Position numbers and translations under genes: made by a program. A stretch of 64,000 nt of DNA from Candidatus Saccharimonadota bacterium. GTDB taxonomy: Bacteria; Patescibacteriota; Saccharimonadia; Saccharimonadales; JAGQNJ01. The notes beneath the pieces were generated by a model, which saw nothing but the letters and a program-made list of their open reading frames with translations, was not told where the DNA came from and did not search any database. Within the stretch, counting starts at the first letter, position 1; every line of letters begins with the position of its first letter. Of the stretch, positions 10,534-48,420 are shown piece after piece. Location: NCBI GenBank assembly GCA_036826295.1, contig DAISWO010000003.1:42018-106017 (forward strand), given 5' to 3'.

Positions 10534-11910
10534 TTATGCAAGCTTTAGCTTGCCCACGAGTTCAGCAATTTTAACGCGTTCTTGCTTTGTCGTGTCACGA
10601 TCTCGTACCGTAACAGTGTCATCCTCTAAAGTATCGAAATCTACAGTCACACAATATGGCGTTCCAATCTCGTCTTGTCTACGGTATCGCTTCCCGATAT
10701 TTCCGTTATCATCAAATTCGCATGTCATAGTTTGGCTAAGAGTTTCAAAAACTGCTTTTGCCATTTTTACTAATTCGGGTTTGTTTTTTAATAATGGAAA
10801 AACAGCAACTTTAACTGGAGCGAGAGATTTGTGCAGTTTTAGAACGGTGCGTGTTTCACCATCGATTTCTTCTTGCTCATACGCATCGCAAACCACCGCC
10901 AAGAACATTCGGCCTAAACCAACTGACGTTTCGACAACCCAAGGTATGTACTTCTCATTTGTAGTCGGGTCTTGATAACTGAGGTCTATACCAGAAAACT
11001 TAGTGTGCTGACTCAAGTCATAATCGGTTCTGTCGTGTATTCCCTCCATCTCATCAAAGCCCATTGATGGATAATTGTATTCTATATCCCAAGCTTCTTT
11101 ACAGTAAAAGACCAAGTTATCGTGTTTTTTCCAGCGCAGATTTTCTTCTTTTATACCTATATCCTGGTACCATTGCCAACGATTCTTCTTAACTTGATCG
11201 TAGACGTTTTTATTCTCATTTGGCCTAATAAAATATTGTGTGTCAGCTTGCTCTAACTCGCGGGTTCGAAACAGAAAATTACGCGGGCTGATTTCGTTCC
11301 GGAAGGCCTTCCCGATTTGGGCAATACCAAAAGGCACTTTCATTCGGGTAGTGTCGACTACATTTTTAAAATTAAGATAAATCCCTTGGCATGCCTCGCC
11401 GGGAAGGTAGACAACCCTTTCTTCTTCTCCAGCAAAATCGCCTAGATTTGATTTGACTAGTAGGTTAAAGGCTTTAACTGATGAAAAATCTTTCTTTCCA
11501 CACTTTGGACATTTTATTTGTTTTCTGTTTTCGTCGAATAGTCGATTCAATTCTTCCTCCGACATTTTTTCGTCAGCTGTGACGCCTACGCCTTCAAGCT
11601 CTTTATCGACACGAATTCGATTATGACAATTTTTGCACTCTGCTAATGGATCAGAAAAACCAGAGGTGTGACCTGAGGCTTCCCATACTTTAGGATTTTT
11701 AAAGATAGCGGAATCCAAACCTACAAAGTCGGTACGACTTGTTACATTTGCTCGCCACCACGCAGCCTTTAGATTATTTAGTAGCTCGACTCCGTAGGGA
11801 CCGTAGTCGTACAGACCTGCTTCTCCACCATAAATCTCTGATCCTTGGTAAACAAACCCACGGCGCTTACATAAACTAACGATGTCTTCTAGGCTAACTT
11901 TTTTACTCAT
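10534..11910 (-). CDS. glyQS: Glycine--tRNA ligase (alpha2 dimeric type)
   Basis: 458 aa. N-terminus IVSLCKRRGFVYQGSEIYGG and class II motifs. Confidence 0.92.
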   Translation of the reverse strand: MSKKVSLEDIVSLCKRRGFVYQGSEIYGGEAGLYDYGPYGVELLNNLKAAWWRANVTSRTDFVGLDSAIFKNPKVWEASGHTSGFSDPLAECKNCHNRIRVDKELEGVGVTADEKMSEEELNRLFDENRKQIKCPKCGKKDFSSVKAFNLLVKSNLGDFAGEEERVVYLPGEACQGIYLNFKNVVDTTRMKVPFGIAQIGKAFRNEISPRNFLFRTRELEQADTQYFIRPNENKNVYDQVKKNRWQWYQDIGIKEENLRWKKHDNLVFYCKEAWDIEYNYPSMGFDEMEGIHDRTDYDLSQHTKFSGIDLSYQDPTTNEKYIPWVVETSVGLGRMFLAVVCDAYEQEEIDGETRTVLKLHKSLAPVKVAVFPLLKNKPELVKMAKAVFETLSQTMTCEFDDNGNIGKRYRRQDEIGTPYCVTVDFDTLEDDTVTVRDRDTTKQERVKIAELVGKLKLA

Positions 11911-11935: not shown

Positions 11936-12628
11936 CTAGCTTACAGTTTGCATAATATGTTGCAACAGCTGCAAGCAAACACCTACCTCGGCTTTAACGC
12001 CACCCACAACATTAATTCGCTCAATAGTCTCGTCTGCCAACAAGCGCATTAGCTTTATATGCCTACTGTTATAGGAGCCCTCGGCTTTGCGCACAAAACA
12101 CATGTCGTCTTGATCGAATGCATAATTACTAGCTTCTGCTAGACTGTAACCCTCCCTATCGGTTGTAAGATTTGGTTCGTGTCCCATCGTCATAATTAGG
12201 TTCATATAAAACCAGGCTTCAATCAAACTCAAATTAAATTCTGGATTATTGAGAGCTGATATCGATCGTAGTAGTAGATTATAATAATCAATATCGCAAT
12301 TATCTTGAGTAACCGAGTCAATGGTCGTAAGAATCGCATAGGCCGTGTTTGTTCGTTCTATATCTTTTACTATTTCTCCGTAATGCGTAACAAGCCTAGA
12401 CGAAGTTAATGTTCCAATCTCTTTTTTTGCCGGGATAAAACTAATACTACTAACGCTAAAAAGTTCAATACCGCCTGCTAATTTGCTCTTTTCTTTGCGA
12501 ACACCCTTCGCGATCAACGATAGCTTGCCCTGATCGGGGGTAATAATCGTCAGGATTCGGTCAGCTTCGCCGAAGTTAATGCGTTTTAGAACTATGCCGC
12601 TGGTCGATTTACTATTTGGCGCTGGCAT
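11936..12628 (-). CDS. recO: DNA repair protein RecO
   Basis: 230 aa. GIVLKRINFGEADRILTIITPDQGKLSLIAKGVRK is a typical RecO OB-fold N-terminus. Confidence 0.85.
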   Translation of the reverse strand: MPAPNSKSTSGIVLKRINFGEADRILTIITPDQGKLSLIAKGVRKEKSKLAGGIELFSVSSISFIPAKKEIGTLTSSRLVTHYGEIVKDIERTNTAYAILTTIDSVTQDNCDIDYYNLLLRSISALNNPEFNLSLIEAWFYMNLIMTMGHEPNLTTDREGYSLAEASNYAFDQDDMCFVRKAEGSYNSRHIKLMRLLADETIERINVVGGVKAEVGVCLQLLQHIMQTVS

Positions 12629-13007
12629 CTTTTGCCTTCACTAAATCTGCCGTCACCGAGAGCAGATTGTCTAATGTAACTTTTGGTTTATACAGCACCC
12701 TTGAAATTCCTAATTCTTCGGCAACTAACGGACTAATCCCCAATACGTCTTCTGGTATCAAAGAATTAATTATAATCGGAATGTCGTGCCAATCTGGATG
12801 TGATCGAAGCTCGTATAAAAATTCTATTCCATTATGTTCACCTAACTGAATTTCTAGAATTATCAGTTTTGGGTTTTGTCTGTCTAGCGCATGGATCGCT
12901 GTTTGCGCGGTTGTCTGAAGATCTACTTTGTACCCCGCTCTTTGCAAAATCTTTTTATAAGTACTCCCAAGTATTGCGTCCGGTTCAATTAACAAAACAT
13001 CTACCAT
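12612..13007 (-). CDS. Stand-alone receiver (REC) domain protein with Glu at the phospho-acceptor position (pseudo-receiver)
   Basis: 131 aa with CheY-like topology. LIILEIQL sits where DxxxxD...LxxLD is expected (E52 instead of Asp); the S (IINS) and K-P (YKPK) positions are conserved. Overlaps recO by 17 nt. Confidence 0.75.
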   Translation of the reverse strand: MVDVLLIEPDAILGSTYKKILQRAGYKVDLQTTAQTAIHALDRQNPKLIILEIQLGEHNGIEFLYELRSHPDWHDIPIIINSLIPEDVLGISPLVAEELGISRVLYKPKVTLDNLLSVTADLVKAKDASAK

Positions 13008-13040: not shown

Positions 13041-13751
13041 CTATAATAGCTTTAATTGTGCACTCGGCAAGAGATTGGCGATAAGTCCAGTCATGTTATT
13101 GTGTCTTATAAAATGTAGCTCACTGTCCATTGCATAAAAAAGCGAGTCTGCGACATATAAGCCCGCTCCGCTAGTATGCGTCATATTTGAAGCTGGCTGA
13201 CGCGCGTTCCCGTACAATTTTCTCGCGCTATCTAGTGATTTTTTACTAATCTTACTGCCAGAACTTAGTATGCCCACGCTAATCACGTCATTATCATTTC
13301 TAGCCAATAACGTAACTAATTTTTTTATCGAGAAGGTATTCGCACTAATAAAAGTATATGCCAAGCTTGTAAGTGCGGCTTCTAGAGCACTTTTATTTGC
13401 CATTACTAAACCGCATTTGCCCTCAACTCTTATATCAATATCTGTATTATATAATTTGGTCAGCCGACTTAGATTTTGCGCGCTATCATACATTGTTGAG
13501 GTGAGTGAGATTGAGCTGAGTTCTAAGGGTACTTGGTTGATTAGAGTCTGAGAGCTCAAAACGTAACTATCAAGTAGTTTAATAGCAGCTTCCGCAGTTA
13601 TCTCGATACGCCTATATTGATCTCGGTCGTTCATTAAACGGCCAAATTCTGCACTTCGCGCCACTTGCATAAAGGGCAATTTCAACTCTTCTACTAGGGA
13701 GTATAATAGCTTAATGTTCGGATCTACCTGAACTTGCTGATTACCTAACAC
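13041..13751 (-). CDS. Degenerate cytoplasmic histidine-kinase-like protein (His replaced by Glu; N and G1 boxes eroded)
   Basis: 236 aa. SLVEELKLPF aligns to the HisKA H-box SHELRTPL with E at the His position. The C-terminal TSGAGLYVADSLF...GLIANLLP resembles the G2 box and end of HATPase_c. No TM segment. Confidence 0.6.
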   Translation of the reverse strand: MLGNQQVQVDPNIKLLYSLVEELKLPFMQVARSAEFGRLMNDRDQYRRIEITAEAAIKLLDSYVLSSQTLINQVPLELSSISLTSTMYDSAQNLSRLTKLYNTDIDIRVEGKCGLVMANKSALEAALTSLAYTFISANTFSIKKLVTLLARNDNDVISVGILSSGSKISKKSLDSARKLYGNARQPASNMTHTSGAGLYVADSLFYAMDSELHFIRHNNMTGLIANLLPSAQLKLL

Positions 13752-19368: not shown

Positions 19369-19746
19369 CTAAACACCAAGATGGTGTTTAACTCGTTCTA
19401 CTACGTCGGCAATTACTACCTGCGATTTGACCATGTAGTCATCTGCACCTAATTTTTGGGCTTTTTCTTTATCGCTGTCCTGACTAAGGGCCGTGAGCAT
19501 GACCACCTTCATATTCGCCGTCTCTGGAGTATTTCGCAGAATATCAAGCACGTCAAAGCCACTTACTTTTGGCATCATCACATCTAATAATATTAGATCC
19601 GGCCGAAATTCCACTGCTGCAGCCAGGGCGTCTTCACCGTTCGGTACTCTATGTACGCTGAATCCCTCCGTTTCAAGACGCATGCGATAGACGTTCGCTA
19701 ACCCATCATCATCCTCAACTAATAATATTTTCTTTTGATTGCTCAT
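19369..19746 (-). CDS. Single-domain response regulator (CheY-like), canonical
   Basis: LLVEDDD, DLILLDVMMP, MLTA and K (YMVKS) are all present. No partner kinase lies in the window. Confidence 0.85.
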   Translation of the reverse strand: MSNQKKILLVEDDDGLANVYRMRLETEGFSVHRVPNGEDALAAAVEFRPDLILLDVMMPKVSGFDVLDILRNTPETANMKVVMLTALSQDSDKEKAQKLGADDYMVKSQVVIADVVERVKHHLGV

Positions 19747-32482: not shown

Positions 32483-33265
32483 CTATTTCTTATTGTTTTG
32501 TAGGTGTTTTATTGTTAGTTCTGTCCGTTTTTTTGCATACTCACAATAGTCGCAATCCCCGCCCATCGCCGCCTTGCCAACTTTTGGCATATCGCCTTCT
32601 AGACATCTTTTCATTTCATGAAGAGTTTTTCCGACCCAACTATCATCGCCGACATAAGGAATGATTTTTGTTCTAAATTCTATGCGATCATGAAACCCGT
32701 CTTTATCTAAACGGCCGTTAGCATACACAAAATAACCAGTATTGTTCACCTGAAACCCATTCTGACGTAAGAGCCATTGGTACACTTCCATCTGTCTTTT
32801 ATACGCCATTTGCCAATCAGCATCGATTGTAACGTCAGCCTGTTTGGCGGTTGCCTTATAGTCAACCACTACTAATTCATCGTGTTCGTTAGTCCATACG
32901 TCATCAACTGCTCCTGTAACAAACAGGTTAGACTCTTCATCTAAGTGCTGTACCCCAACAAAGTTTTCTCGCCATTTGTTTAAATCTTTATGTGCAAAAG
33001 GAATAGCGGATACATTGTATTCAATCATAATTGGATGAGGTTGTTTTTTGCTACGAAAATCGTCAAATTCTTTTTTTAAAAGTTCGTCGACAGCACTGTT
33101 GATTCTAAACGGAGGTCCATTCGGTCTTTTTAGTTTTAATCTCGCATCTAGCCAAAAACATCGTGGGCACTGCGTAAATAATTCTATTTTGCTCCGACTA
33201 ACTTTAAAGGCTTCTTTTTGGCCTGGTCTGTAGGCCTGACCTCTTTTACTATAACTCGTTATCAT
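32483..33265 (-). CDS. PD-(D/E)XK nuclease superfamily protein with N- and C-terminal CxxC pairs (Cas4/RecB-like fold)
   Basis: QCPRCFWLD, the D...VVVDYKA catalytic motif, and C-terminal GGDCDYCEY. Confidence 0.7.
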   Translation of the reverse strand: MITSYSKRGQAYRPGQKEAFKVSRSKIELFTQCPRCFWLDARLKLKRPNGPPFRINSAVDELLKKEFDDFRSKKQPHPIMIEYNVSAIPFAHKDLNKWRENFVGVQHLDEESNLFVTGAVDDVWTNEHDELVVVDYKATAKQADVTIDADWQMAYKRQMEVYQWLLRQNGFQVNNTGYFVYANGRLDKDGFHDRIEFRTKIIPYVGDDSWVGKTLHEMKRCLEGDMPKVGKAAMGGDCDYCEYAKKRTELTIKHLQNNKK

Positions 33266-33301: not shown

Positions 33302-33922
33302 TTATGGGTTTTGAATGAAACGAATTATGTCTTTAGGTTTTTCCGCAATAAAGTCTGGGTTATTTTTACTAAGAATTTTATCTCCGTTAAATCCCCATGT
33401 AACGGAGATGACCGGCAAGCCTACTTTATTTGACGCCTTGATATCTCTCACCTCGTCACCGATATATATACAAGATTTTTTATCAATCTTGTACTTTTTT
33501 ATTACGCTCTTTAACGCTATGGTTTTACCAAACACACCGACCCCTCCAACTATGCTTTCAAAATACTGATTTAAATTATTATTCATAAGTAAAATATTTA
33601 TATTTTCCACACTATTACTACTCACAATATACAAATGATGGCCGTCATCATGGAGCCGCTTGATGACATCAGACAAACCAGAAAACACTTTAACTCTCGA
33701 AATATTTTGCTTTATATATGATCTTGCCAGCACAACGTACTTAGGAATTCTATGATAAGGAACATTTAGTTCGCTAATTAACTGTTTAACGGTCATGTTC
33801 TTATATTTCTTGATTTTTTCGTCAGTTAAGCCCAAATCACCTAGAACCGTCTCTGCACATTCAATCGCAACTGGAAGAGTGTCAGCAATAGTACCATCAA
33901 AATCAAAAATCACACTCTTCAT
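33302..33922 (-). CDS. HAD superfamily hydrolase (phosphatase)
   Basis: Motif I is VIFDFDGTIADT; motif IV region is YIGDEVRD. Confidence 0.8.
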   Translation of the reverse strand: MKSVIFDFDGTIADTLPVAIECAETVLGDLGLTDEKIKKYKNMTVKQLISELNVPYHRIPKYVVLARSYIKQNISRVKVFSGLSDVIKRLHDDGHHLYIVSSNSVENINILLMNNNLNQYFESIVGGVGVFGKTIALKSVIKKYKIDKKSCIYIGDEVRDIKASNKVGLPVISVTWGFNGDKILSKNNPDFIAEKPKDIIRFIQNP

Positions 33923-33971: not shown

Positions 33972-34781
33972 TCATGGGCGAAGAGCACCAAAAAAGACCT
34001 GCCAGGCAAGCAGTGATTTTGCGACGAGGCTAAGAATCATGTAGACACGTTCACCGTATAGATAGTCTGACCATTTACCAATCCTTTTGTACTGAAGATA
34101 CATATTAATCGCAAAACAGTTAAAGAATACAAAGAGACTAACATAAATCCAATAAACAAACGTCGGGATTTGACCGCTACCATACATGTTAGAGCCCCAA
34201 AAATAGATCCCAATCACTAACCAAGGCACAATCCCTGCGATACAACCCACAACAAAGCTTACCCACGAGACGTCCTTAGATTTATTATTATGTAACTCCA
34301 TGACGAGCCCGCAAAGGTTCATTACGGCCGTCAAACTAAATATCATAACTAAACTGGAAAGATCGTATATCCCACTCAGGAGCGCTATACCAATCATCAT
34401 TGTGCTGGCACTAAACGAGTATTCAATCCATCGCATTTTATTTATATGATTTTTAAGGTTGCTCTCGTACCAATCACGCAAGTAGGTAGCTAGTAAACCA
34501 TGTGCTAATGCCGACATAAAGAAAAATAACGCAACTAGATAGGCGAGGTTAACATTTGTAACATTCTGCATTGCTGGTACGAGATTTGGCATGCCGTTAG
34601 CATTAGAGTTAATAGTATCTAGCGTCAAGTAGCTGGTGTTAACGGGGAAAGTTACATTTTTAGCCAACCAAACCACTGCTAAGCCCTGCAGTGCGTGCAG
34701 AATCGCTAACACCACATTCCATTTATGTAGTTTTTTGAAATCTTTTGTATTCATAGTATCTTTGCTTTTAAATCTTTTCAT
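33972..34781 (-). CDS. Heliorhodopsin (7-TM retinal-binding protein)
   Basis: 269 aa. RWIEYSFSAS, FVVGCIAGIVPW and LQYKRIGKWSDYLYGERVYMILSLVAKSLLAWQVFFGAL are near-colinear with the prototype heliorhodopsin as I recall it, including the Schiff-base Lys in SLVAKS. Confidence 0.88.
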   Translation of the reverse strand: MKRFKSKDTMNTKDFKKLHKWNVVLAILHALQGLAVVWLAKNVTFPVNTSYLTLDTINSNANGMPNLVPAMQNVTNVNLAYLVALFFFMSALAHGLLATYLRDWYESNLKNHINKMRWIEYSFSASTMMIGIALLSGIYDLSSLVMIFSLTAVMNLCGLVMELHNNKSKDVSWVSFVVGCIAGIVPWLVIGIYFWGSNMYGSGQIPTFVYWIYVSLFVFFNCFAINMYLQYKRIGKWSDYLYGERVYMILSLVAKSLLAWQVFFGALRP

Positions 34782-34821: not shown

Positions 34822-35103
34822 TCACATAAAAAAGCTGGGAACAATTACCAACGACAGTATTGCGAGACCAAAAAGCCTGCGAAAATAATTAACCCCGTAG
34901 AATATTTCAAGCATAGACCAGCAAACTATACTCACCAGCGAAACAAGGTCCACAAAAAACTTAAAATCTCCTTCTTGAATAATCTTTGAGACAACCATTG
35001 TTAAAAACTAGATTAATAGTGGCGCATTTGGCCACTGAATTATAACTATTTCTCCGTCGCTATTAAAAAATAGTTTACGGAACAATTTTCGGATTTTATG
35101 CAT
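34822..35103 (-). pseudogene. Small membrane protein ORF interrupted by one in-frame TAG (31 codons + TAG + 61 codons), or two separate micro-ORFs
   Basis: Hand translation: MHKIRKLFRKLFFNSDGEIVIIQWPNAPLLI*FLTMVVSKIIQEGDFKFFVDLVSLVSIVCWSMLEIFYGVNYFRRLFGLAILSLVIVPSFFM*. TAG at 35010..35008. ATG sits 3 nt after the lysS stop. Both pieces are below the ORF-track size cutoff. Confidence 0.5.
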
Positions 35104-35106
35104 AGT

Positions 35107-36615
35107 CTACATTTTCAAATCAGGATATATGGACTTAGTCGTCTGATCAATTTCTGTTCGTAATTGAGGGAATGGAACACCTTCCCTCGCAGACACGCCC
35201 TCAAATATCCAAAAAACTCGCTCTGCATAACCTAGTCCACAAGCAGGAGGCATGCCATACTCGAGCATTTCAACATAATCAATATCTAGCATCTGTGCTT
35301 CATCATCACCCTCGTCGCGCATTTTTTGTTGTTGCACAAAACGATCAAGCTGGTCCACTGGATCATTTAACTCACTCCAGCCATTACTTAACTCACTGCC
35401 AGCAATTACGGCCTGAAAACGCTGAACGAACCTTGGGTCATCATCGTCTGTCTTTGATAACGGAGATATAAATGTCGGGGTATCTATAAGCCATACCGGT
35501 CCAGCAACACTTGCACGAATTTTCTTCCATAATTTGTCGATTCCTCTGGCTTTGTTCTCGGTCTTCTCAACTTCAATCTTATGTTTTTTTAGCTCACTTT
35601 TTATTTGTTCTATCGTGCAATCAAACACATCTATCCCGTAATGTTTCTTGATGACATCAGCATATTTCCAACGTTCCCACTTAACGCCCATGTCGATTTT
35701 CATACCTCTAACTTCAAATTTCAGCGTCCCGAAAGTCTCAAGTAAGACTTTTTTAAACATCTCTTCCATCAATTCCATGCCGTCTTCCCAATCGGCATAG
35801 GCCCAATACCATTCCATGGCAACATGTTCTGGCAAATGTTCGTCACTATAATTTTCATTACGAAACCTTGGGCCAATATCAAACACCCTCTCGTAACCTC
35901 CGCCAATTAATCGCTTCAACGGAAGTTCATGAGATATTCGTAAATAAAAATCTTGATCAAGTGCATCCATATGAGTAACAAATGGGGTTGCATCTGCCCC
36001 ACCGGTTGTATGTTCTAGCACTGGGACATTAATCTCTAGAAAATCTTTGTCTAATAAAAACTGTCTTGTCGCTTGCCAGAACTTACTCCGTCTGACGAAA
36101 CGATCATAAACATCTTTGTTGACATTCGTATCTACATATCGTCGTCTTAATCTTTCTTCTTTATTCGTAAATCCATCTTCTTTTGTGGGCATTGGTCTTA
36201 GCGACTTCGTTAGTAACCTTAGCTTTTCCACGGCAACCGAAATTTCGCCAGTTTTGGTTTTAATAACTTTTCCTGTAGCTTCCACAAAATCACCAGGATC
36301 CAGTAATTTTAGATCTGAGTAATTCAGCTCACTATTTGGGTAATGAGCATCGCTTCGACCCTCATCTTTATTAAATAACTGAACTTCTCCGCTCGCGTCC
36401 TTTATAACTACAAAAGCTAGTTTGCCAATATCCCGTATCCGAATAATCCTGCCCACAACCGATACTGTCTTGTTCTCAAGCGCAGAAAAGTTTTCAATAA
36501 CATCTAGATTATTGTGAGTTCGTTTCGTCTTTGCAGGGTATGGATTTATACCGAGTTTTTTTAAATCCTCTATCTTCCGAAGTCTCTCGGCCCTTAATTC
36601 AATCAAATTTGCCAT
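35107..36615 (-). CDS. lysS: Lysine--tRNA ligase, class II
   Basis: 502 aa. OB-fold N-terminal domain and class II motifs (FRNE, GGLGIGIDR-like ACGLGYAERV). Confidence 0.93.
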   Translation of the reverse strand: MANLIELRAERLRKIEDLKKLGINPYPAKTKRTHNNLDVIENFSALENKTVSVVGRIIRIRDIGKLAFVVIKDASGEVQLFNKDEGRSDAHYPNSELNYSDLKLLDPGDFVEATGKVIKTKTGEISVAVEKLRLLTKSLRPMPTKEDGFTNKEERLRRRYVDTNVNKDVYDRFVRRSKFWQATRQFLLDKDFLEINVPVLEHTTGGADATPFVTHMDALDQDFYLRISHELPLKRLIGGGYERVFDIGPRFRNENYSDEHLPEHVAMEWYWAYADWEDGMELMEEMFKKVLLETFGTLKFEVRGMKIDMGVKWERWKYADVIKKHYGIDVFDCTIEQIKSELKKHKIEVEKTENKARGIDKLWKKIRASVAGPVWLIDTPTFISPLSKTDDDDPRFVQRFQAVIAGSELSNGWSELNDPVDQLDRFVQQQKMRDEGDDEAQMLDIDYVEMLEYGMPPACGLGYAERVFWIFEGVSAREGVPFPQLRTEIDQTTKSIYPDLKM

Positions 36616-47670: not shown

Positions 47671-48420
47671 TTAAATAACTGTATCTGACCACTGTGAAAA
47701 TGCTAATACTACTACTACCACTGCAATCATAATAAATACTATTTGTCGTGATACTAGTTTGGTTAATCTTCCGTCCTGAATCAAGTAATACAAGGTTCCC
47801 ATGCCAAAACCCAAAACATTTAGAAGTAAGACAGGCTGGGCAACTATTCCATAAAATATTAGCCAGTGTCCCAGTAGCCAAGCTAAAGCTCCGGCAAAAA
47901 ATGCCCAATAATCACCTAAAAATCTACCGTAAGAATCATCAAAGCTACTAAAAAAGTGCCTGGCGCAGAAATAACAGATAACCCAGGTTCCTAGAACTAG
48001 GACAATCAAGGGTTCGCCACCCCATTTTGTATAAAGGGCCATTAGCCCTAATAATTGTGCTACTAGTGCCTGCGCACTCATGCCGTATATTGTATTACTG
48101 GGTTTTATTAATAAAAGCCATACGGCGTATGATAATGTCCAGATCAACTGCCAGACAACTGAATTTGTTTGAGACATAAATATTACAAATGAAATACCTG
48201 CAATCATATCTACTGCATTAGCTCTAATGTATGCTGGCCAATGCCTTGGCCTAACTGCTAACATTCTCCATTTGCTTAACAAGACCAAAATTATCGCTAA
48301 CTGAACTAAATTGATCCTGACGAAAACGTAGACCAGTAGTGGCAAAGCTATTGTGAAAAGCACATGAAAGATACTAGAGAAGCCACTTGCAGGTCTAATT
48401 TTCTGGAATTTTGCTTTCAT
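47671..48420 (-). CDS. Hypothetical polytopic membrane protein
   Basis: 249 aa, about 7 hydrophobic segments. ATGA overlap with the upstream LCP gene. Confidence 0.55.
   Translation of the reverse strand: MKAKFQKIRPASGFSSIFHVLFTIALPLLVYVFVRINLVQLAIILVLLSKWRMLAVRPRHWPAYIRANAVDMIAGISFVIFMSQTNSVVWQLIWTLSYAVWLLLIKPSNTIYGMSAQALVAQLLGLMALYTKWGGEPLIVLVLGTWVICYFCARHFFSSFDDSYGRFLGDYWAFFAGALAWLLGHWLIFYGIVAQPVLLLNVLGFGMGTLYYLIQDGRLTKLVSRQIVFIMIAVVVVVLAFSQWSDTVI

Follow-up and report, generated by a model that had tools for sequence, protein, structure and literature searches.

Does the open reading frame (ORF) at positions 33972..34781 of a stretch of DNA from a Candidatus Saccharimonadota bacterium (GCA_036826295.1, contig DAISWO010000003.1; the whole 64,000-nt stretch analysed is called the window below) encode a working heliorhodopsin (HeR), and if so, from where would the cell obtain the retinal, and what would the protein do with it? 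An earlier reading of the nucleotide letters (the original prediction) had proposed a 269-aa heliorhodopsin carrying three characteristic strings. The ORF listing bears this out, giving an intact 269-aa ORF with an ATG start on the minus strand, the product of which includes RWIEYSFSAS, FVVGCIAGIVPW and LQYKRIGKWSDYLYGERVYMILSLVAKSLLAWQVFFGAL; the family profiles Pfam PF18761 and NCBIfam NF038020 agree. The match of this ORF to the heliorhodopsin family is far above chance, and we regard it as nearly certain that it encodes a functional heliorhodopsin.

33972..34781, minus strand: heliorhodopsin gene, 269 aa, seven transmembrane (TM) helices and an extracellular beta-hairpin, N-terminus predicted to be cytoplasmic (ORF, Pfam, NCBIfam, PDB, AlphaFold2 and Foldseek).

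The profile search named beforehand as a check of the assignment returned a significant heliorhodopsin match. The protein scores 313.2 bits (E-value = 1.3e-93) against PF18761 (Heliorhodopsin; gathering cut-off 26.7), its residues 18-267 covering the family profile over its full length (positions 1-242 of 242). The equivalog NF038020 ("heliorhodopsin HeR") is likewise matched from end to end (positions 1-244 of 244) its score of 312.8 bits exceeding a cut-off of 100. A PDB search ranks TaHeR of the Thermoplasmatales archaeon SG8-52-1 (6is6/7u55, E-value = 7e-75) first among solved structures, followed by the prototype actinobacterial heliorhodopsin 48C12 (6su3/6uh3/9ljj, E-value about 5e-51). 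At E-value<=1e-10 the database yields more than 7300 matching proteins. A look-up of the exact protein sequence returned no entry. One of the matches in public assemblies (P0001) is 99% identical to the window protein, and another (P0024), named "heliorhodopsin HeR [Candidatus Saccharibacteria bacterium]" at NCBI, is 68% identical.

The MAFFT alignment of the protein took in TaHeR, 48C12 and, from the database, its 120 closest homologs. Two codons of the gene are of particular concern here.

34422..34424, minus strand: codon GAA of E120, the Schiff-base counter-ion in TM3, motif RWIEYS (alignment).
34017..34019, minus strand: codon AAA of K255, the retinal Schiff-base lysine in the SxxxK motif of TM7, S251-L-V-A-K255 (alignment and codon reading).

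K255 pairs with K241 of 48C12 and K238 of TaHeR, and E120 with E107 and E108, respectively; both residues are invariant in 120 of 120 homologs. The structure 7clj, which is the E108D mutant of TaHeR, departs from 6is6 precisely at the E120 column, so that the position of the counter-ion is independently fixed. H29 pairs with H23 of both structures, H94 with H80 (48C12) and H82 (TaHeR), and S251 with S237 (48C12) and S234 (TaHeR), all three being invariant throughout the homologs. The same complete invariance is found for most residues of the retinal pocket, namely W118, Y121, S124, M154, E162, W187, F220, F223, Y231, Y247 and W260. K255, E120, H29, H94, S251, W187, M154 and E162 are identical to their counterparts in TaHeR and 48C12. 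The residues singled out by the original prediction, namely the lysine in SLVAKS, the glutamate in WIEYS and the two histidines in LHALQ and ALAHG, thus fall on the expected columns; in particular, the SLVAKS lysine does not lie off the Schiff-base position. The strings that the original prediction gave for 48C12 (RWVEYSLSSS, FGCIAGIVPW and LQYKGKGKWSNYLRGERAYIVLSLVAKSALAWQIF) are all found in the 48C12 sequence of our alignment.

An AlphaFold2 model built on a 58-sequence alignment (mean pLDDT 92.1, pTM 0.87) exhibits seven TM helices and a beta-hairpin between TM1 and TM2 (strands 44-54 and 67-78). In a Foldseek search of this model against the PDB, all of the top ten matches are heliorhodopsin structures (6is6 with TM-scores of 0.88/0.94 and a root mean square deviation of 1.9 A), and the type-1 rhodopsins trail behind with E-values above 1e-3 and TM-scores of about 0.6. 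The N-terminus together with the loops 2-3, 4-5 and 6-7 contains 16 lysine and arginine residues, versus one in the other loops and the C-terminus. Following the positive-inside rule, this count predicts a cytoplasmic N-terminus, as the proposed topology check anticipated, and an external C-terminus, i.e. the inverted orientation that defines the heliorhodopsin family.

The gene is also under purifying selection and is no relic. Compared with the two closest genomes (those of the related loci L001 and L002, 82% amino acid identity), the proportion of nonsynonymous differences (pN) is 0.11 and that of synonymous differences (pS) is 0.77-0.81, which is saturated. Because of this saturation the NG86 dN/dS is not computable, and the raw pN and pS were used. 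The uncorrected pN/pS ratio is 0.13-0.14 for the heliorhodopsin gene, 0.10-0.13 for the adjacent HAD phosphatase gene and 0.10-0.14 for the nuclease gene following it. A low pN against a saturated pS, similar to that of the flanking genes, indicates that the heliorhodopsin gene is not decaying.

The original prediction implied surprise at finding a heliorhodopsin where the genome is reduced and a retinal pathway is missing. This combination is rather the documented norm. Chiriac et al. 2022 (PMC9166423) screened 1326 genomes of the candidate phyla radiation (CPR) and found 115 rhodopsins in 86 of them, including 80 heliorhodopsins in Saccharimonadia with SLVAK among the commonest motifs. Bulzu et al. 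2021 (PMC8612252) described HeRs as restricted to monoderms and listed Patescibacteria among the HeR-bearing phyla, and Chazan et al. (bioRxiv 10.1101/2021.02.16.431466) found blh to be generally rare in HeR genomes. The scavenging of retinal, too, has been put forward before, both for HeRs of the TaHeR type and for Saccharibacteria (PMC9296517). The present gene is one more orthologue of a catalogued group, and as it stands the value of the finding is mainly a correct annotation. For the function of HeRs, Saccharibacteria, with tiny genomes, no chromophore synthesis and an episymbiotic life, offer a clean test case.

As to the supply of retinal, the following segment of the gene is informative.

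34110..34256, minus strand: TM5-TM6 stretch with the lateral-fenestration and carotenoid-binding-site residues F176, C180, G183, F220, N221 and A224 (sequence).

According to a preprint (bioRxiv 10.1101/2025.11.27.691015), the lateral fenestration and carotenoid-binding site of HeRs is made of an aromatic residue at each of positions 162 and 206, a small one at 166 and at 210, Gly169 and Asn207 (48C12 numbering). The six residues listed above correspond to the 48C12 positions 162, 166, 169, 206, 207 and 210, and all are kept. Work cited in PMC9296517 has TaHeR binding external retinal rapidly through a small opening, in an organism that also lacks retinal synthesis. At the sequence level, this opening appears to be preserved in the window HeR. 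The kept motif supports the scavenging of retinal; it equally permits the binding of an exogenous xanthophyll.

Pfam scans of the approximately 63 ORFs spanning the window detected no Blh/BCD, RPE65-type oxygenase, SQS_PSY (phytoene synthase), Amino_oxidase (crtI, phytoene desaturase), lycopene cyclase, trans-polyprenyl synthase or type-1 rhodopsin. Photolyase and glutamine synthetase were not found among these ORFs either, and the sole prenyl enzyme of the window is the cis-prenyltransferase UppS. Six of the ORFs have no Pfam match. The only multi-TM one among them, 47671..48420 on the minus strand, encodes 249 aa with seven hydrophobic stretches and four histidines, and its gene overlaps a LytR-CpsA-Psr gene by 4 bp. 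As a cryptic Blh this ORF was rejected at the profile level, since it matches neither BCD nor any other Pfam family at E-value<=10 and no NCBIfam family at E-value<=0.01. The claim that no carotenoid, blh or crt gene occurs in the 64 kb is therefore borne out. The scavenging of retinal that had been deduced from it is supported, with one qualification: the step to the entire genome cannot be made from the window alone, the window being roughly 6-8% of such a genome (single contigs of relatives measure 784 kb and 1.05 Mb). The genome-wide absence comes instead from the literature on Saccharibacteria, in that rhodopsin-bearing members were reported by Jaffe et al. 2022 (PMC9296517) to be devoid of blh genome-wide, and it was proposed that their retinal is derived from actinobacterial hosts.

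We compared the window proteins by tblastn with 61 related loci (designated by L numbers). The neighbourhood of the heliorhodopsin gene in the window consists of the following genes, and the neighbours named in the original prediction (HAD phosphatase, PD-(D/E)XK nuclease and lysS) are confirmed by Pfam.

32483..33265, minus strand: PD-(D/E)XK (Cas4/RecB-like) nuclease gene, downstream anchor of the syntenic block (Pfam PDDEXK_1, synteny).
33302..33922, minus strand: HAD-IA type phosphatase gene (HAD_2), 49 nt downstream of the heliorhodopsin gene, DxDGT motif intact (Pfam HAD_2, 121.7 bits).
34822..35103, minus strand: small frame in the spacer between lysS and the heliorhodopsin gene, 31 codons, a TAG (35010..35008) and 58 more codons in the same frame (sequence).
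35107..36615, minus strand: class II LysRS gene (lysS), upstream anchor of the heliorhodopsin slot (Pfam tRNA-synt_2 and OB fold, synteny).

Among species-representative genomes, 25 related loci were identified, the best of which are from metagenome-assembled genomes of "uncultured Candidatus Saccharibacteria bacterium"; more distant ones are found in Dojkabacteria, Woykebacteria and Thermoplasmatales. The window proteins are 82-98% identical to those of L001, and about 20 kb are perfectly collinear. With 82-95% amino acid identity to, and full synteny with, such Saccharibacteria genomes, the window is assigned to a Saccharibacterium (TM7, Patescibacteria/CPR). The heliorhodopsin gene occupies a conserved slot in the order GreA - LysRS - [variable] - HeR - [HAD] - PD-(D/E)XK nuclease - SerRS - HPF - SecA - M16 - RF2 - FtsEX, an order that persists in Saccharimonadales in which the HeR is as little as about 52% identical. 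In the variable part of this slot, 12 loci selected by their HeR exhibit a gene with a GCFWG signature directly upstream of the heliorhodopsin gene on the same strand, identified by Pfam as PMSR (the methionine sulfoxide reductase MsrA, PF01625, 180-210 bits). In L064 (a 784-kb contig) the order is DUF427 - PMSR - HeR with a 12-nt gap. An msrA directly upstream of the heliorhodopsin gene is observed in L004, L007-L010, L016, L021, L032-L034, L038, L064 and L066-L071, often preceded by DUF427.

As a check for bias, eight loci on long contigs were picked through homologs of the nuclease, regardless of the presence of a HeR. In seven of the eight, msrA adjoins the heliorhodopsin gene, and the remaining one (L072) lacks both genes. 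In six of them HeR comes after PMSR in the same orientation (gaps of 46, 45, 39, 48 and 46 nt, and one 17-nt overlap), and in one the two genes are divergent and 22 nt apart. What separates HeR from the nuclease varies across this sample: HAD, an RsmE-type methyltransferase, DUF5671, an M14 peptidase or a TRAM methyltransferase. The msrA-HeR pair is thus a stable unit within a variable slot. The HAD phosphatase gene is found 10-50 nt 3' of the heliorhodopsin gene in 15 related loci. It was considered as a partner since it lies 10-12 nt downstream in many loci, but it is a weaker candidate than MsrA given the variable HeR-nuclease slot. The window and its nearest relatives L001, L002 and L063 represent a variant without msrA and with the small ORF between lysS and the heliorhodopsin gene; the window genome has lost msrA from the slot.

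A literature search returned no paper pairing "heliorhodopsin" with "methionine sulfoxide reductase", and the main texts of Bulzu et al. 2021 and Chiriac et al. 2022 contain no Msr. The ten neighbour groups of HeRs listed in PMC11109279 are glutamine and NAD synthetases, photolyase, MerR, TerC, ABC transporter, SDR, alpha/beta hydrolase, DUF2177 and DUF2238. None of them adjoins the heliorhodopsin gene here (the nearest ABC genes, FtsE/FtsX, are about 9 kb away), and MsrA and HAD are absent from that list. Two other features were noted in the related loci. L006, from a Saccharibacteria metagenome-assembled genome, has two heliorhodopsin genes in tandem; the second (11044-11769) begins about 290 nt downstream of the other and is very divergent, with 23% identity to the query and a Pfam score of 97 bits. 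L069 (740-2272) and L071 (815-2344) exhibit a class I LysRS (PF01921) after greA where the window has the class II enzyme, which looks like an in-place displacement, and the class II LysRS of L064 has an extra DUF2000 domain.

These observations lead us to the following model. The window HeR would insert into the membrane with its N-terminus in the cytoplasm. All-trans retinal would be attached to K255 by a covalent bond, as a protonated Schiff base with E120 as its stabilising counter-ion. The cell, most likely unable to make retinal, would take it up from other organisms (an actinobacterial host or the lake community), and the chromophore would enter through the lateral TM5-TM6 opening, as shown experimentally for TaHeR. 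Light would isomerise the retinal and lead to a long-lived intermediate in a slow photocycle, with no pumping of ions. The protein would rather act as a photosensor whose positively charged cytoplasmic loops modulate partner proteins. By genomic context the partner in this lineage would be MsrA, and the signal would most plausibly concern the protection from, or the repair of, light-driven oxidative damage. Such partner regulation via cytoplasmic loops is described in PMC11109279 for OcHeR with the OmrDE ABC transporter, and had earlier been shown for glutamine synthetase and photolyase as partners; the role of an oxidative-stress sensor was proposed for HeRs in PMC8612252 and PMC9166423. From the residues, the gene context and this literature we infer that retinal is scavenged, that no ions are transported and that the protein is linked to the repair of oxidative damage, and we consider the entire chain from a scavenged retinal to a non-pumping sensor to be rather probable.

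Several points weigh against this model. As the window is about 6-8% of the genome, the observed absence of retinal synthesis holds for the window, and some HeR-bearing bacteria have been suggested to make retinal by an as yet unrecognised pathway (bioRxiv 10.1101/2021.02.16.431466). Our literature search found no experiment on any CPR heliorhodopsin. The demonstrated HeR partners, i.e. glutamine synthetase, photolyase and multidrug ABC transporter, are not near the heliorhodopsin gene. As for MsrA, its gene is found neither at this locus nor elsewhere in the 64 kb, and the heliorhodopsin gene occurs without an adjacent msrA in L001, L002, L011, L012, L035 and L036, so that any link is not obligatory. 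Finally, msrA and HeR are neighbours in Saccharimonadales only, and their adjacency could reflect an inherited gene order rather than a functional coupling.

Other roles can be imagined for the protein. It might transport ions, gated or driven by light, as the viral V2HeR3 does with protons, aiding membrane energetics. Its nearest characterized relatives, however, are TaHeR (50% identity) and then 48C12 (42%), both of which are reportedly non-transporting and exhibit a slow photocycle. That some viral HeRs move protons, as cited in PMC11109279 and PMC12873467, and that Saccharibacteria have few other means of moving protons (PMC9296517) would speak for transport; yet the window HeR keeps the fenestration and carotenoid-binding motif that is reportedly lacking in the transporting viral subfamily (10.1101/2025.11.27.691015), and the energy-generating rhodopsins of Saccharibacteria are type-1 SacRs, which belong to another family (PMC9296517). 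We thus hold a transporting function to be very improbable. Nor is it credible, save at the slightest of chances, that the gene is a decaying relic, its product binding no chromophore and being tolerated in a genome unable to supply retinal. The window does lack a chromophore pathway, and the premature stop in the small gene immediately upstream tells of some local decay, but the heliorhodopsin ORF itself is intact, its retinal-pocket residues are invariant in the 120 homologs, its pN/pS with saturated synonymous sites is like that of the neighbouring housekeeping genes, and the gene has been kept at the same site across the Saccharimonadales down to about 52% identity.

The remaining alternatives concern the chromophore. 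A functional HeR could be provided with retinal made in the same cell by an unrecognised pathway. Chazan et al. (bioRxiv 10.1101/2021.02.16.431466) interpreted the usual lack of blh in HeR genomes in this way, citing Aurantimicrobium minutum, and the six ORFs of the window without a family, including the seven-TM protein of 47671..48420, leave room for such an enzyme. Any such pathway needs beta-carotene, however, and the window contains no phytoene synthase, desaturase, cyclase or trans-prenyl synthase, genes that are lacking as well from the genomes of rhodopsin-bearing Saccharibacteria (PMC9296517). The 47671..48420 protein gives no BCD signal at E-value<=10 and, with its 4-bp LytR overlap, looks envelope-related, and the kept fenestration favours uptake; an endogenous source is distinctly improbable. 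The inverted topology and the fenestration might otherwise mainly serve to hold an external xanthophyll as a second antenna, in a two-chromophore device fed by the pigments of neighbouring organisms. All six motif positions are kept in the window HeR. According to 10.1101/2025.11.27.691015, 91% of HeRs have a carotenoid-binding site, and the preprint makes a case that monoderms use exogenous xanthophylls. On the other hand, its evidence is structural and docking-based, and no HeR is known to show energy transfer; an antenna alone does not define an output function, and the entry of retinal would account equally well for the kept motif. As a main purpose we consider the antenna unlikely, and it is compatible with the model of a retinal-scavenging, non-pumping sensor.

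Within this sensor model, a direct functional link between the heliorhodopsin and MsrA is doubtful. In its most explicit form, the msrA-HeR pair would be a two-gene unit of Saccharimonadales in which the light-sensing HeR directly activates or recruits MsrA, with repair functions of HAD and PD-(D/E)XK downstream; we put this forward tentatively, as an unlikely arrangement. If it holds true, photo-oxidative repair would be switched on by a chromophore borrowed from the host, MsrA would be a fourth, previously undescribed partner class of regulatory heliorhodopsins, and the window genome would be a natural variant uncoupled from msrA. In any case the msrA-HeR pairing provides a testable candidate partner, which fits the published idea of HeRs helping monoderms under light-induced oxidative stress.

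Other candidate partners and signals were sought around the gene. The spacer frame 34822..35103 looks like a nonsense variant of the gene of a conserved 93-aa two-TM protein and has no Pfam match. An intact 93-aa orthologue exists in L001 (9679-9960), and a weaker one in L007. The TAG codon reads TGG (Trp) in the 99%-identical strain L063 (1626-1950) and in L001, suggesting either a genuine nonsense variant or a sequencing error. As a general HeR partner this small upstream ORF finds no support, being confined to the clade of the window and L007 and broken in the window. Bulzu et al. (PMC8612252) reported an enrichment of two-component genes near HeRs. The window encodes two stand-alone response-regulator receivers (12612..13007 and 19369..19746, both on the minus strand) without an output domain, and no recognisable histidine kinase. 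The 236-aa ORF 13041..13751 (minus strand), which is next to the first receiver and has no family, might be a degenerate kinase-like protein. A two-component partner of the heliorhodopsin was rejected, the two orphan response regulators being 14 and 21 kb off and not adjacent to the gene.

A promoter and terminator scan of the heliorhodopsin locus gave counts near the shuffled expectation with no clear signal. A terminator-like hairpin with a T-run lies at 33997..34013 (minus strand), within the last 40 nt of the heliorhodopsin coding sequence (codons LLAWQVFFG). Its effect could be to limit read-through towards the HAD phosphatase gene, or it could be a by-product of the conserved peptide. 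The HAD protein of 33302..33922 resembles phosphoglycolate phosphatase and PpaX, yet it remains under their NCBIfam equivalog cut-offs. The window as a whole is a housekeeping block encoding, among others, aminoacyl-tRNA synthetases, SecA, FtsZ/FtsA/FtsEX, release factors and ribosomal proteins, as well as class II ribonucleotide reductase and ParAB. Scans of the 64 kb gave no tRNA or Rfam match. The minus strand carries about 55 of the 63 genes, and each 2-kb bin has a negative GC skew; the whole window thus seems to lie on one replichore, with its genes co-oriented with replication.

Among known systems, the closest is TaHeR (6is6 and 7u55; E108D mutant, 7clj), with 50% identity over 245 aligned residues. 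Both proteins share the Schiff-base lysine, the counter-ion glutamate, both histidines, the serine of SxxxK, a methionine at the position of Q213 and a threonine at that of N138 (48C12 numbering), and the fenestration residues, and the TaHeR host, too, is without a retinal pathway according to work cited in PMC9296517. They differ in that TaHeR is archaeal and the window HeR is from a bacterium (CPR), in the genomic context, in an extracellular hairpin loop about six residues longer and a TM5-TM6 loop five residues longer in the window HeR, and in F176 replacing Y164. The prototype 48C12 (6su3, 6uh3, 9ljj; 42% identity) shares the key residues H23, H80, E107, S237 and K241, and its fenestration (F162, C166, G169, F206, N207 and A210) exhibits the same motif. 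In contrast, S112, N138 and Q213 of 48C12 are replaced by alanine, threonine and methionine in the window HeR, as in TaHeR.

The SacRs, type-1 proton-pumping rhodopsins of Saccharibacteria (PMC9296517), have the same host lineage, a dependence on external retinal that is probable for the window HeR as well and, in a model, a similar lateral opening. They nevertheless belong to a different family with the opposite membrane orientation and are outward proton pumps, and no SacR gene occurs in the window. With the Saccharimonadia HeRs of PMC9166423 the window HeR has in common the lineage, the SLVAK motif and the predicted inverted topology, and nothing essential differs; unlike in most of these relatives, no msrA precedes the heliorhodopsin gene at the present locus. 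Compared with the regulatory HeRs of PMC11109279, the neighbours typical of this lineage (MsrA and HAD phosphatase) fall outside their ten groups. The window HeR likewise has positively charged cytoplasmic loops (intracellular loop 1, LRDWYESNLKNHINKM; intracellular loop 3, QYKRIGKWSDYLYG), and the co-orientation and close spacing of its gene with its neighbours suggest an operon.

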